Shown piece after piece: positions 13,734-22,632 of a DNA stretch of 42,137 nucleotides. The number at the start of each line of letters is the position of its first letter. Positions within the stretch are counted from its first letter, which is position 1. Made by a program: the position numbers and the translations under genes. This DNA is from Oligoflexia bacterium (GTDB taxonomy: Bacteria; Bdellovibrionota; UBA1018; CAIMNF01), in the NCBI GenBank assembly GCA_903858975.1, contig CAIOKW010000037.1:1-42137 (forward strand). Direction: 5' to 3'. The notes under the pieces are model-generated. The model did not search any database, had not been told where the DNA came from, and saw only the letters and a program-made list of their open reading frames with translations.

Positions 13734-15149
13734 TTGTTTGAGTTATTATTTTTCAGTATTGGGGTCTTGTTTTTACTGGGCTCTGTGGATGACCTCTTGA
13801 TTGATATCGCACACTTCTTTCATGGGATTAAGCCGATCAAAATCTCATCCCTTCAATGGGCGGTCTGGCGGGCTCAAGCCGAGAAGCCGATCGCGATCAT
13901 GATTCCAGCATGGCAGGAGTCCTCCGTTTTGAGGGCTATGGTCAGAACGAACCTTGCGCGCATTCAGTATCACAATTACCGATGGTTCATTGGAGTGTAT
14001 CCCAATGATTCAGAGACGCTCGAGATTGCTAAATCACTCTCTGAAGAATACCCAGACAAAGTAGTCATGGTGGTTACTGACCGTCCCGGTCCCACCTCAA
14101 AAGCGCACTGTCTGAATTGCATCATGCGAGTAATTCAAGGAATGGTAAAAATTGCGCAAAAAGAAGGGAGCGGTTGGATCCCACACTATGTTGCCATTCA
14201 TGATGCAGAGGACGTCATTCATCCAGACGCATTTACGGTGATCAATGGGCAAGCGGATGATCTTGATTTTATCCAGGTGCCGATCTTTTCATTGCCAGTT
14301 CCCGCGCGCGATTGGGTTTCGGGCACTTACCTCGATGAGTTTGCAGAGATTCACCTGAAAGAGGTTCCGGTTCGGAAGGTTCTCAATATGCCCATCCCCA
14401 GTGCGGGGGTAGGAACCTTTTTTTCACTCGATCTGCTATTTAAAATGGGCGAGCGATTTCACTATTGGTTTGATGAGGAGAATCTGACGGAGGATTATGA
14501 AATTTCCCTCCGTATTGCTCGACTCGGGGGCAAACAGGATTTTCTTCTCTATTTAGATGAAGAAAATCAGATGATTGCAACTCGTGAATATTTCCCTCAC
14601 GAACTGGGTCGATCGATCCGACAAAAGACGAGATGGACGACTGGCATTGGACTTCAGACGATGTCGAAATGGCGCGGGTATGGAAGTTTTGCGAATGCCA
14701 GGCACAGTTATCGGGACCTTGTGACCGCTTATGCGATTGCTCGCGATCGTAAGGCGCTTTGGGCGAATCCCAGTGTGATGTTTGCCTGGTTTGTGATGAC
14801 TTTGTTCTTATTGTCTATCTTCCTGCACGCTCAAGGGAGCGCATCGGGGTGGAAGCATCCAAATTGGATCCTGACCTTACTTACGGCAAATTTTGTCTTG
14901 TTTGGATTTCGGATGTTTCAGCGGGCACGCTTCTGCGCTCAAATCTATGGAAAAACACACGGTGTCCTTGCGATTCCTCGAGTAGCGCTTTCCACCTATA
15001 TCAATGGTGTGGCCTGTATTCGCGCGCTCCTTCAGTACTTTGGCGCTGCTAAGACCCAGCAGCAAGGAAAAATAGCCTGGGATAAGACCGACCATCGCTT
15101 TCCAGATTTATTGCCTCCTCAAGAAAAAAAGGTGGAGGGAGTTCATTGA
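13734..15149 (+). CDS. NfrB-family (phage N4 adsorption protein B-like) GT2 exopolysaccharide synthase, lacking the C-terminal MshEN domain
   Basis: Blocks match E. coli NfrB as I remember it: GSVDDLLIDI, PIAIMIPAWQES, FIGVYPNDSET, RPGPTSKAHCLN, IHDAEDVIHP, GTYLDEFAEIHLKEVPVR, PSAGVGTFFS, LTEDYEISLRI, REYFPH...RQKTRWTTGI and IAWDKTDHRFP. The protein ends about 25 aa after the last block. The probable start is TTG 13734, 7 nt after GAGGG; the track start at 13566 (TTG) adds a non-hydrophobic 56-aa extension. Confidence 0.85.
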   Translation: MFELLFFSIGVLFLLGSVDDLLIDIAHFFHGIKPIKISSLQWAVWRAQAEKPIAIMIPAWQESSVLRAMVRTNLARIQYHNYRWFIGVYPNDSETLEIAKSLSEEYPDKVVMVVTDRPGPTSKAHCLNCIMRVIQGMVKIAQKEGSGWIPHYVAIHDAEDVIHPDAFTVINGQADDLDFIQVPIFSLPVPARDWVSGTYLDEFAEIHLKEVPVRKVLNMPIPSAGVGTFFSLDLLFKMGERFHYWFDEENLTEDYEISLRIARLGGKQDFLLYLDEENQMIATREYFPHELGRSIRQKTRWTTGIGLQTMSKWRGYGSFANARHSYRDLVTAYAIARDRKALWANPSVMFAWFVMTLFLLSIFLHAQGSASGWKHPNWILTLLTANFVLFGFRMFQRARFCAQIYGKTHGVLAIPRVALSTYINGVACIRALLQYFGAAKTQQQGKIAWDKTDHRFPDLLPPQEKKVEGVH

Positions 15150-16213
15150 TGAAAGCGCTAGGGGATATGGGATTGTGGTTTGCATTTCTTTTATTGTTTC
15201 CACTTGTATCTCAATCAAAAGAACTCATTAAGGGGCGGGTCACTTTTGTGGACCAATGTACGGGTGAACCGAGCTCATTCACCACACCCAATGGCACTAC
15301 GCTACGACTTGACTTATTTGATCTCAATATCACACAGTCACTTCACATTCATGTTCACTACCAATTGGCCGGAGCTCCGGCAGATACGACTCGGCAACAT
15401 GCCTATGACTATCAGTACAATTATGATCCCGGCGAGTTTGATCAAAATTTAAAGTTTTTCTTTAAAACTCCCCGAGAGCGCGAACTCAATTCGGTGGAGA
15501 AAATGATTCCGGGCTCTCACATTTGGCAAGCTTCAGTGACTTGGGATCAGGGCACGGGCTTTGGCCAGGGCGTCGACACTCTTTACCGCGCCACCGGTAC
15601 ACCCACACTCTATAAGATGAATTCGGATGTGGTCTGCCACTGGACCTCGAGTCCTGGAATTTCATCCAATTACTATTACAACGCAGACCAACAAAAGATG
15701 ATGGTCCAGAGGGAAGTGAGGGATATCTCCCAAAGTAGCATCAATCATGAACCCGATGCTATGAATCCCCTCACGACTCCACAAAGTATTTATGGAGTCT
15801 CCGGGTTCTACTTTAGCAATCGGGATCATGAGTCCTACCTGAATCAAAACATGATGTTGAATCGCTCCTGGACCCTTTATCAAAACCAGGGCGGGATTTT
15901 TGCGGATCATTTCTATTTTTCACGCATTCGAGCAGAGCGTTTTGAGTGGAGCCCAAATGAGAATGGATGTGGGCAATATCAAAAAGTGGAATCCGGAACC
16001 CTCGATGTGGGGACTCCGGTATCAGAATTTTATTCAGCTCCTCAATCGCTCTCGGGTGATCCCGATGGGATGCTCAATTTTCTTCAGGCCTACATTCCCA
16101 ATCTCGATACCTGTTCAGCACAAGGCTTGTCTCCCCCTAGCTCGATTCCAGATGGAACCTCGTTCCAAAATGAAGCCCTCATTTTCAATTCAGATACCCC
16201 AAAACCTCAGTAA
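15149..16213 (+). CDS. Secreted hypothetical protein (EPS-operon member 2)
   Basis: The ATG overlaps the synthase stop (TGATG), with GGAGG 10 nt upstream. Signal peptide MKALGDMGLWFAFLLLFPLVSQS. It is rich in N/Q/Y/S and has no recognisable domain. Confidence 0.65.
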   Translation: MKALGDMGLWFAFLLLFPLVSQSKELIKGRVTFVDQCTGEPSSFTTPNGTTLRLDLFDLNITQSLHIHVHYQLAGAPADTTRQHAYDYQYNYDPGEFDQNLKFFFKTPRERELNSVEKMIPGSHIWQASVTWDQGTGFGQGVDTLYRATGTPTLYKMNSDVVCHWTSSPGISSNYYYNADQQKMMVQREVRDISQSSINHEPDAMNPLTTPQSIYGVSGFYFSNRDHESYLNQNMMLNRSWTLYQNQGGIFADHFYFSRIRAERFEWSPNENGCGQYQKVESGTLDVGTPVSEFYSAPQSLSGDPDGMLNFLQAYIPNLDTCSAQGLSPPSSIPDGTSFQNEALIFNSDTPKPQ

Positions 16214-16222
16214 GGAGAAACC

Positions 16223-21515: not shown

Positions 21516-21528
21516 AGCGGAAGACGGC

Positions 21529-22632
21529 TCAGAGTTGATCGGCAATCCTCTGGGCCGCAAATCCATCCCCGAAAATATTTCTTTGAATTCCGCGTTTTTC
21601 TGGGCGTCCTAAGTTCTTCGCCCATTGCATCGACTTCCGAATAGAGTCTGGATCGGTTCCCGCAAGTCTTGCAACTCCTTCATTCACCGCCTCCATTCTT
21701 TCGGTGGTTTTTCTGCAGATCACTACCGGAAGTCCCAGAGTGGACGCTTCTTCTTGAATTCCTCCTGAATCCGTAATGACGAACTCACACTCGGAGAGGA
21801 GGTGGCAAGTCTCTCCATAGTGGATGGCAGGGATCATGTGCACTTGTTTTAAGTGAGAGAGGTGTTTCTCAGCAGCAGGCTTAGCGGTGTGATTGGGGTG
21901 AATAGGATAGATGAGAGAGAGTTCAGGATTTGAGACGATGAATTTTGCGAGCGTCTCAAACCATGCATCCATGGCGGCTTTATTCTCTCTTCGATGAGCA
22001 GTTAACAGAACGGGTTTTTGGCCCGCGTCTTTCACGACCTTTAAGAGTTGAGAAATACTCTCAGGTGCATGTTGTTCCAGGGTCCATTTCAAGGCATCAA
22101 TTCCTGTATTTCCGGTCAAAAAAATATTCTGAGCGGGAACCCCTTCATTCAGAAGGGCTTGCCTTGCCATTTCGGTGGGCGCAAAGTGGGCCTTTGCTAC
22201 TATGGCTATGAGGCGACGGTTACCTTCTTCCGGAAAGGGGTGATCTAAGTCATAGGAGCGAAGGCCCGCCTCATTATGAGCGACCTTTACGCCCGATTGA
22301 AAGGCCGCCCAGGCCGCCATCGCAGCACTGGTGGTGTCTCCTTGAACAATCAGCCATTCAGGCTTAGATTTTAAAAACAGTTCATCTAAGCCCTCGAGTA
22401 CCGCAGCAGAAGAGGAGCTTAAGGTTTGATTGGGTTTCATGATGTTCAAGTTAAAATCAAGATGAACTCCAAAGTGTGAAAGGGCTTGCTCCAGCAATTC
22501 CTTGTGTTGCCCGGTTCCGACCAGGGCAACTTTCTCTTTTCCAAATCGCCTCACGAGTTCGAAGTAAAGCGGCACTTGCTTGATCACCTCGGGGCGGGTT
22601 CCAACTAAAATCCAGTAAATTTGATTCTCCAT
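21529..22632 (-). CDS. wecB: UDP-N-acetylglucosamine 2-epimerase (non-hydrolysing)
   Basis: Motifs VGTRPEVIK, GTGQHKELL, VQGDTTSA, HNEAGLRS, PFPEEGNRR and DSGGIQEE. The start is ATG 22632 (MENQIYW...), with AAGGAG 8 nt upstream; the track start at 22665 adds 11 aa. Confidence 0.93.
   Translation of the reverse strand: MENQIYWILVGTRPEVIKQVPLYFELVRRFGKEKVALVGTGQHKELLEQALSHFGVHLDFNLNIMKPNQTLSSSSAAVLEGLDELFLKSKPEWLIVQGDTTSAAMAAWAAFQSGVKVAHNEAGLRSYDLDHPFPEEGNRRLIAIVAKAHFAPTEMARQALLNEGVPAQNIFLTGNTGIDALKWTLEQHAPESISQLLKVVKDAGQKPVLLTAHRRENKAAMDAWFETLAKFIVSNPELSLIYPIHPNHTAKPAAEKHLSHLKQVHMIPAIHYGETCHLLSECEFVITDSGGIQEEASTLGLPVVICRKTTERMEAVNEGVARLAGTDPDSIRKSMQWAKNLGRPEKRGIQRNIFGDGFAAQRIADQL

Follow-up and report, generated by a model that had tools for sequence, protein, structure and literature searches.

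Organization of the locus

The stretch of DNA analyzed here, which we call the window, comprises positions 1 to 42,137 (42,137 nt, forward strand) of contig CAIOKW010000037.1 from an Oligoflexia bacterium of the phylum Bdellovibrionota (assembly GCA_903858975.1). The source is a metagenome-assembled genome (MAG) of 2.63 Mb in 351 contigs that is 85% complete. The window carries what is very probably an NfrB-family polysaccharide biosynthesis locus: a glycosyltransferase (GT) gene encoding the synthase (GT2), four downstream plus-strand genes (P2, P3, P4 and P5), a convergent wecB gene and, beyond it, a gene for a predicted outer-membrane barrel (P7). The features are as follows.

13452..13733, + strand: intergenic/leader region of 282 nt, divergent, upstream of the synthase
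13734..15149, + strand: GT2, NfrB-family processive synthase of 471 aa without MshEN (NCBIfam, BLASTP, motifs)
15149..16213, + strand: P2, secreted orphan of 354 aa (no family match; fixed place between GT2 and P3)
16223..17278, + strand: P3, secreted orphan of 351 aa with a predicted immunoglobulin (Ig)-like N-domain and elongated beta C-domain (AlphaFold2 (AF2) model)
17299..20238, + strand: P4, whole gene, 979 aa
17299..18378, + strand: P4 N-terminal domain (aa 1-360), probable GH113-like pseudo-glycosidase (hhalign, BLASTP against P5)
18460..20238, + strand: P4 aa 388-979, accessory domain plus DUF2334 (CE4-like), putative de-N-acetylase (Pfam)
20235..21515, + strand: P5, secreted GH113-family glycoside hydrolase of 426 aa (Pfam, family profile)
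21529..22632, - strand: wecB, non-hydrolysing UDP-N-acetylglucosamine (UDP-GlcNAc) 2-epimerase (TIGR00236; open reading frame (ORF) open to 22665)
22664..23464, + strand (ORF from 22631/22664): P7, 266 aa, predicted 12-strand outer-membrane beta-barrel, candidate exporter (AF2, Foldseek)

Our reading of the DNA reproduced the coordinates and the tight packing of genes given in a preliminary description of this stretch. The GT2 stop and the P2 start share the sequence TGATG, with the P2 ATG at 15149; gaps of 9 nt and 20 nt separate P2 from P3 and P3 from P4; P4 and P5 overlap by ATGA (20235-20238); and 13 nt lie between the convergent stops of P5 (21515) and wecB (21529). The genes of the operon are translationally coupled. 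P2, P3, P4 and P5 all begin with a hydrophobic, signal-peptide-like N-terminus, in agreement with the earlier account of four coupled secreted proteins of 354, 351, 979 and 426 aa.

The GT2 ORF is open from 13566; its probable start is the TTG at 13734, which has GAGGG 7-8 nt upstream and stands directly before the first transmembrane helix. For wecB, the most likely start is 22632 (MENQIYW...), with AAGGAG 9 nt upstream, rather than 22665. The wecB and P7 genes diverge, with approximately 31 nt between their likely starts and the wecB ribosome-binding site inside the extended P7 ORF (22632-22664); each promoter must thus sit within the 5' end of the other gene. In the 282-nt leader, we found no Rfam family at E<=1 and no riboswitch or other RNA element. 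A scan of the leader for the sigma-70 consensus gave no convincing site, and the promoter/terminator scan was uninformative.

GT2 belongs to the NfrB family and lacks MshEN

All six NCBIfam matches of GT2 were to NfrB/PRK14716-type models, with no BcsA or PgaC model among them, leaving no sign of the BcsA- or PgaC-like affiliation against which the preliminary description had weighed its assignment. The best model, NF011305, scored 366 bits and so fell below its equivalog cut-off of 409, for which reason we treat GT2 as a separate clade; the NfrB equivalog NF008411 scored 310 bits over model positions 10-476 of 723. BLASTP aligned GT2 with residues 15-480 of Escherichia coli K-12 NfrB (34% identity, E 8e-73), and GT2 stops 12 residues past the ...AWDKTDHRFP block, just as the block-by-block alignment reported earlier had implied. 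GT2 carries the HDAED (D-x-D-type), TED and QKTRW (QxxRW) motifs together with N- and C-terminal transmembrane segments. Judged by its sequence, GT2 is an NfrB-clade synthase whose catalytic motifs are intact.

In E. coli NfrB, Pfam places the MshEN domain at residues 542-628. We found no MshEN in GT2, either with Pfam or by tblastn with the E. coli NfrB C-terminus. Similarly, NfrA, YbcH and the NfrB C-terminus had no tblastn match in the window, and MshEN, PilZ and NfrA_C were all missing from its contig, so that the claim of a locus without MshEN, PilZ or NfrA homologues holds. Genome-wide, MshEN occurred in only two ATPase-sized ORFs, both on other contigs; none of the ten PilZ matches lay on the window's contig; and NfrA_C was not found in the whole genome, an 85%-complete MAG.

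The preliminary description listed the lack of MshEN among the non-canonical traits of the locus. Although the lack itself is real, short NfrB-like forms proved to be common both in the phylum and in the literature. In a sample of 401 genomes from the phylum, 72 carried an NfrB-like gene, with frames of approximately 390-550 aa save for a single frame of 855 aa (G299). Among 63 loci fetched with GT2 as query, 13 showed an MshEN-like continuation, 50 showed none by tblastn (a few of these being fragments), and about half had an NfrA-like gene. One or two short NfrB-like GTs are also present in many Bdellovibrio-like complete genomes. In a published survey, Junkermeier and Hengge found MshEN in 1,705 of 1,841 NfrB homologues, and wecB genomically linked to NfrB wherever no other pathway supplies WecB (PMC8669469). 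A short synthase without MshEN is not unusual.

GT2 shares its length class, about 440-500 aa, with the short NfrB-like GTs (PRK14716 subfamilies NF011304-NF011307 and the MshEN-less homologues of PMC8669469), but differs from them in its partners, which are in no published description that we found: literature searches on DUF2334 and on Bdellovibrio exopolysaccharide (EPS) returned no account of these partners or of their recurrence. The missing MshEN and the wecB linkage are thus already-published features of part of the NfrB family, whereas the partner set appears to be new.

Conservation of the gene cluster

We compared the locus with six named relatives, all Bdellovibrionales/Oligoflexia MAG loci (L001-L006). 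In each, P2, P3 and P4 follow a GT2 homologue of 54-70% identity in the order seen in the window, and wecB and P7 come next wherever the contig extends far enough. The order GT2-P2-P3-P4 also occurs in a second set (L066-L074), several members of which come from the same genomes as the first, since their tblastn rows are identical. The order is thus kept in 14 related loci, counted over two sets that overlap in genomes. This conservation indicates that the arrangement is not due to chance, and bears out the expectation that the downstream genes are conserved together with the synthase. In the phylum sample, P3 (11 genomes) and P7 (13 genomes) occurred exclusively within the 72 GT-positive genomes. 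Within the genus, 7 of 15 genomes carry the GT, a patchy distribution as expected for an accessory locus. Two of the relatives contain an ORF of about 230 aa between P4/P5 and wecB (14789-15487 in L003 and 16306-16980 in L006) that has no counterpart in the window; its sequence suggests a candidate HAD-type hydrolase.

Rearranged versions of the cluster were also informative. In L004, the divergent P7/wecB pair is inverted as a unit. L081 (G323, 12336-15650) is a three-gene operon, P7-wecB-GT, in which P7 and wecB are co-directional; no P2, P3 or P4 homologues lie nearby, and a convergent ORF of 1904 aa follows. L082 (G177) has the order g276-like gene, GT, P7, DUF2334. In G056, a P7-profile match (E 6e-13) lies directly upstream of the GT in a locus that also holds wecB (L084), while the tail of a GH113 gene, a P2-like gene (E 9e-6), a P3-like gene (E 6e-25) and a DUF2334 gene are grouped on a different contig (L075). 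Because of this split, the system looks modular, with a core of barrel, epimerase and synthase and a periplasmic module of P2, P3 and DUF2334, with or without GH113.

P7 is a predicted outer-membrane barrel

The preliminary description had guessed that the protein encoded at 22664-23464 is a beta-barrel of this system, and the guess is now strongly supported by the AF2 model, Foldseek, synteny and occurrence in GT-positive genomes only. The P7 family is small, with 25 clusters among 5.8 billion, and P7 had no match in Pfam, in NCBIfam (at permissive thresholds) or in sequence and profile searches of the PDB. The AF2 model, built on a 25-sequence alignment (pLDDT 87), has twelve long antiparallel strands after the signal peptide and is accompanied by no tetratricopeptide repeats (TPR). 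Foldseek matched it with probability 1.0 to many outer-membrane barrels, including the COG4313 channel, the BrkA translocator, OmpG, the PgaA barrel (4y25), VhGalP and LpxR; among the top matches, the KdgM-type VhGalP (8xua) had the best target-normalised TM-score, 0.58. About 45 positions are invariant in the alignment, many of them charged (H144-E145, D81/R83/T84 and D-Y-N-R at 211-214).

Of all the partners, P7 accompanies the synthase most faithfully: all 13 genomes that carry it are GT-positive, and wherever we inspected its locus, it adjoins the GT or wecB. This fidelity, together with the barrel prediction, is why we take P7 to be the outer-membrane component. The P7 profile did not match the NfrA-less NfrB-like loci of Xanthobacter, Vibrio, Variovorax or an alphaproteobacterium.

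P4 and P5 combine mannanase-like and deacetylase-like domains

P4 had been described as deacetylase-like, a label that its DUF2334 domain and CE4-like invariant motifs uphold. DUF2334 (aa 636-922, 109 bits) is its only Pfam match; the N-terminal and middle pieces matched nothing in Pfam or NCBIfam at permissive thresholds. In a scan of 1.84 billion representatives, the full 979-aa architecture was rare (about a dozen representatives, 37-46% identity), and aa ~390-960 formed a widespread module of about 600 aa (852 representatives, 206 of them below 1e-30). Module and full-length alignments share the invariant positions R639-x-E641-D642, H716-G-x-x-H720, P780-H781-Y782 and W914-H915, which we take to mirror CE4 motifs 1, 2, 3 and 5. 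The module profile matched CE4 deacetylases in the PDB weakly (E 0.0075-0.6), with HGvtHQ placed on the CE4 sequence HSYTHQ in the match at E 0.0075.

The N-terminal part of P4 is related to P5. The two families aligned by hhalign over 345 columns (98.5% probability, E 3.8e-15), the two proteins matched by BLASTP (E 5e-5), and tblastn matched them as well. Both positions of the P5 catalytic glutamates correspond to deletions or non-acidic residues in the P4 family. P4 thus consists of a pseudo-glycosidase domain, which probably binds glycan, fused to a putative de-N-acetylase that is probably active.

P5 itself scored 50 bits against Pfam GH113 (cut-off 27), and a profile of 29 sequences matched GH113 beta-1,4-mannanases (5ylh at E 2.3e-13; 4cd6 and 3civ at about 4e-10, the latter 4.5e-10; and 7dv7). 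Its invariant E180, in the sequence GAELYS, falls on the acid/base motif GCE, and its invariant E336 on a glutamate that is replaced by alanine in the 5yli sequence, a position taken to be that of the nucleophile. With both catalytic glutamates present, P5 is apparently an active, retaining GH113-family hydrolase, and the earlier label of a glycosidase-like protein is borne out. P5-like proteins are far more numerous than P3 or P7 (at least 375 clusters). P5 was present in two of the six loci reaching that far, and among the named relatives only L003 has it besides the window; a homologue at 55% identity occurs in a cousin locus of a cultured Bdellovibrio sp. (CP168968.1, L077). Its presence in the cousin locus and its lack from most close relatives indicate a mobile accessory, not a fixed member.

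P2 and P3 are clade-restricted orphans

P2 had no Pfam or NCBIfam match even at E<=10, nor had P3 at permissive thresholds, and both are clade-restricted, consistent with the two orphans noted earlier among the secreted proteins. P2 is 24-39% identical across relatives, with a central insert that varies, and its place is always between the GT and P3; its profile found the distant copy in L075. P3 has 29 homologues among 5.8 billion clusters, all at least 42% identical, with four invariant cysteines, and sequence and profile searches of the PDB gave no match. In its AF2 model (pLDDT 75.7), residues 28-158, with values above 90, form a confident Ig-like sandwich, and the C-domain contains a pair of strands, each about 20 residues long, and a Ser/Thr-rich stretch modelled with low confidence (197-252). 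Foldseek against the PDB and BFVD gave weak matches only: RhoGDI-type Ig folds, Dln1, lamprey LIP, Epx1 and alpha-haemolysin. We assigned P3 to no fold family because these matches were either generically Ig-like or weakly aerolysin-like; the latter, at E>=2.6e-3 and a TM-score of about 0.2, give a hint of an aerolysin-like module. BLASTP detected no similarity between P2 and P3. Their hhalign comparison was non-significant (probability 1.2%, E 0.043) and placed a CG...(D/N)TC pattern collinearly in both, a hint at possible paralogy.

WecB and the nature of the polymer

The wecB product scored 329 bits against TIGR00236 (cut-off 210), and wecB is linked to the GT across Bdellovibrionota and in many proteobacterial NfrB-like loci. 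NfrB function requires WecB (PMC8669469, PMC8669472), and it is from this requirement that an N-acetylmannosamine (ManNAc) polymer has been inferred for NfrB (PMC8669472).

The partners of other NfrB-like GTs bear on the same question. A DUF2334 gene followed by a GH26 gene stands beside such GTs in two other phyla: in a Sulfurovum locus (L020) that encodes an NfrB-like GT of 697 aa, an NfrA-like protein (TPR plus NfrA_C), DUF2334 and a GH26-like protein, and in a Trueperaceae locus (L033), where the GT adjoins DUF2334 and GH26-like genes. A Ramlibacter locus (L057) groups wecB, DUF2334, a 769-aa protein and the GT. Both hydrolase families, GH26 and GH113, belong to clan GH-A and comprise beta-mannanases. 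The recurrence of an NfrB-like synthase and WecB with a mannanase-type hydrolase and a CE4-like protein independently favours a ManNAc polymer that is beta-linked and manno-configured, and the recurrent DUF2334 partner predicts that this polymer would be partially de-N-acetylated. The Sulfurovum locus (278-7643 of L020, from a MAG) differs in one further respect: its GT has a C-terminal extension that neither Pfam nor tblastn recognised as MshEN, and which may be a different regulatory domain.

Relationship to known systems

The locus resembles the E. coli NfrB-NfrA-YbcH system, which makes the N4 glycan receptor (NGR), in its synthase family (the 34% identity spans the GT/transmembrane region and includes the WDKT-H-FP block), in having wecB linked or required, and in forming an operon with secreted accessory proteins. 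In contrast, the NGR system has MshEN, NfrA (TPR, NfrA_C and a barrel of 16 strands; PMC8669472) and YbcH, none of which occurs here; P7, P2, P3, P4 and P5 stand in their place. BLASTP found no similarity of YbcH to P4 or P5. YbcH is a DUF4434 protein and, we presume, may share a glycoside hydrolase TIM-barrel clan with GH113.

P4 is comparable with PgaB of the poly-N-acetylglucosamine (PNAG) system and PelA of the Pel system: in each case, one large periplasmic protein joins a CE4-type deacetylase to a glycoside-hydrolase-fold domain, and P4 would, like them, act before export on a synthase-made N-acetyl-hexosamine polymer. P4 also has the order of PelA, hydrolase N-terminal and deacetylase C-terminal (PMC12022489). 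However, P4 has no detectable sequence homology to either protein; its GH113-derived domain is without both catalytic glutamates, and its deacetylase-like domain is DUF2334, not Polysacc_deac_1. Pga- and Pel-type systems further use a TPR-scaffolded porin, whereas P7 is a predicted 12-strand barrel without TPR. In predicted strand number and size, and in the target-normalised TM-score of VhGalP, P7 is instead like the KdgM/NanC-type porins, although it has no sequence similarity to them, and the porins known from this group take up oligosaccharides and do not export polymers.

The cousin locus of the cultured Bdellovibrio (L077, 2421-12557) has the order wecB, g276, g206, short NfrB-like GT (460 aa), DUF2334 (595 aa), a 575-aa unknown, GH113 and a second GH113. 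It shares with the window the GT (35% identity), DUF2334 (29% to the C-terminal module of P4), GH113 (55% to P5) and wecB; it differs in carrying DUF2334 without a fused pseudo-GH113 domain, in lacking P2 and P3, and in having the 575-aa protein and second GH113 in addition. The g206 product, encoded upstream of the GT, is 24% identical (E 5e-6) to the L084 ORF, a single weak intermediate to P7: the P7 profile matches the L084 ORF at 6e-13 but does not match g206 itself.

On the other side of the synthase, a methyltransferase gene (11137-12246) and an HI0933-type flavoprotein gene (12243-13451, - strand) separate it from a P-type heavy-metal ATPase gene (9037-11133). In L002, L003, L005 and L006, a homologue of this ATPase gene precedes the synthase by roughly 0.2-0.5 kb. 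Farther out, the window encodes a tricorn-like protease of 1062 aa (5185-8373) with PD40 propeller, Tricorn C1, PDZ and S41 domains; L003, L005 and L006 conserve it upstream as well, and it has no connection with the EPS locus.

Proposed pathway and alternative explanations

We propose that the locus encodes a synthase-dependent NfrB-family EPS system in a form specific to Bdellovibrionota, which would make and secrete a ManNAc-type surface polysaccharide in these relatives of predatory bacteria. In this pathway, WecB would make UDP-ManNAc, which GT2 would polymerise at the inner membrane while threading the chain across it. In the periplasm, the dead GH113-like domain of P4 would hold the chain as the CE4-like DUF2334 domain takes off some of its N-acetyl groups; P5 would trim or release chains; and the polymer would leave the cell via the 12-strand barrel P7. 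P2 and P3 would be beta-rich periplasmic or surface accessories and may replace the scaffold role of the NfrA TPR domain, although we have low confidence in a scaffold or polymer-guiding role for them. Since GT2 has no c-di-GMP (cyclic di-GMP) receptor domain, control must lie elsewhere, in transcription, substrate supply or an unlinked partner. We built this chain on homologies, motifs, fold predictions, synteny and co-occurrence, and from these we infer which substrate is used, that the polymer is deacetylated and hydrolysed, how it is exported and what P2 and P3 do. Taken as a whole, we consider the chain somewhat more probable than not, if well short of the confidence that we place in the NfrB-family assignment.

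Several points weigh against this chain. Even for E. coli NGR, the NfrB product is chemically undefined (PMC8669472). An unlinked exporter or regulator could exist, given a MAG that is 85% complete. P5 is not a fixed component of this variant, and P2 and P3 have no assignable function. The weak PDB matches of the DUF2334 module would count against a deacetylase role, and a literature search for a characterised DUF2334 member found none. As modelled, P7 would be smaller than every characterised EPS porin, all of which, to our knowledge, have 16-18 strands. Its invariant charged residues, including the His-Glu pair, would also fit an outer-membrane enzyme.

The last two points are central to an explanation in which the core is of the NfrB type but P7 is not a channel: it would be an outer-membrane enzyme (an LpxR-like hydrolase or acyl-modifying protein), an anchor or a tether for the polymer, with export by an unlinked or unrecognised route. 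The presence of LpxR (3fid; query-normalised TM-score 0.48) among the Foldseek matches is consistent with this, as is a degree of conservation unusually high for a passive pore. However, no variant of the locus offers another outer-membrane candidate, the minimal P7-wecB-GT operon of L081 suggests that these three suffice, and 12-strand KdgM-type barrels do pass oligosaccharides, one of them, VhGalP, having the best target-normalised TM-score among the top matches. We therefore regard a non-channel P7 as unlikely and retain the barrel as the candidate exporter.

Two further alternatives seem to us less probable still. The polymer may not be based on ManNAc: it would be a PNAG- or chitin-like chain that the synthase assembles from UDP-GlcNAc or some other sugar, with wecB nearby for a different pathway. 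CE4-type deacetylases typically act on GlcNAc polymers, which fits such a chain, and no NfrB has a biochemically determined substrate (PMC8669472). Nevertheless, linkage of wecB to an NfrB-like GT recurs in dozens of unrelated genomes (this work; PMC8669469), the gene stays beside P7 and the GT in both the inverted (L004) and the reduced (L081) units, and the hydrolases found with these synthases are of mannanase families (GH113, GH26), not of chitinase or PNAG-hydrolase families; a ManNAc polymer remains our preferred substrate assignment, and a different sugar is improbable. The other alternative, to which we give equally little weight, holds that P2 and P3 are secreted effectors or adhesins riding in the operon, perhaps predatory, with P3 an aerolysin-like beta-pore-former. 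The P3 model lends itself to this view through its Ig-like head and pair of long strands, and its Ser/Thr-rich stretch lies where aerolysin-type toxins bear their insertion hairpin; Dln1, lamprey LIP, Epx1 and alpha-haemolysin are indeed among its weak Foldseek matches. All of these matches are poor in both E value and TM-score, though, and P2 and P3 remain joined to a DUF2334 gene in the distant G056 with the synthase on another contig, while P3 is found solely in GT-positive genomes. Both observations favour P2 and P3 as parts of the EPS system.

Beyond the proposed pathway, two broader ideas can be put forward only tentatively. P7, possibly with P2 and P3, might form a TPR-less export route and be the first 12-strand EPS secretin, and the combination of short NfrB, WecB, DUF2334 and a GH-A hydrolase might define an undescribed, multi-phylum family that makes partly deacetylated (cationic) poly-ManNAc.

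Implications for the NfrB family and for Bdellovibrionota

The most robust additions of this work are the predicted P7 barrel, the fusion in P4 of an apparently dead GH113 domain to a CE4-like domain, the apparently catalytically intact P5, and the cross-phylum recurrence of DUF2334 with mannanase-like hydrolases. Among synthase-dependent EPS systems, NfrB is the latest to have been recognised, and this locus, with its DUF2334, GH113 and GH26 partners, provides genomic evidence for a beta-mannan-like ManNAc polymer, predicted to be partly deacetylated and in this respect analogous to PNAG and Pel. The NfrB family would here be seen to work without c-di-GMP sensing or an NfrA porin, and the P7-wecB-GT set is an attractive target for reconstitution. 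In a survey of exopolysaccharide clusters (epsSMASH preprint), Bdellovibrio was the sole core activated-sludge genus in which most species lacked a detected EPS cluster. With an NfrB-like synthase in 72 of the 401 phylum genomes, the system described here may fill this gap.

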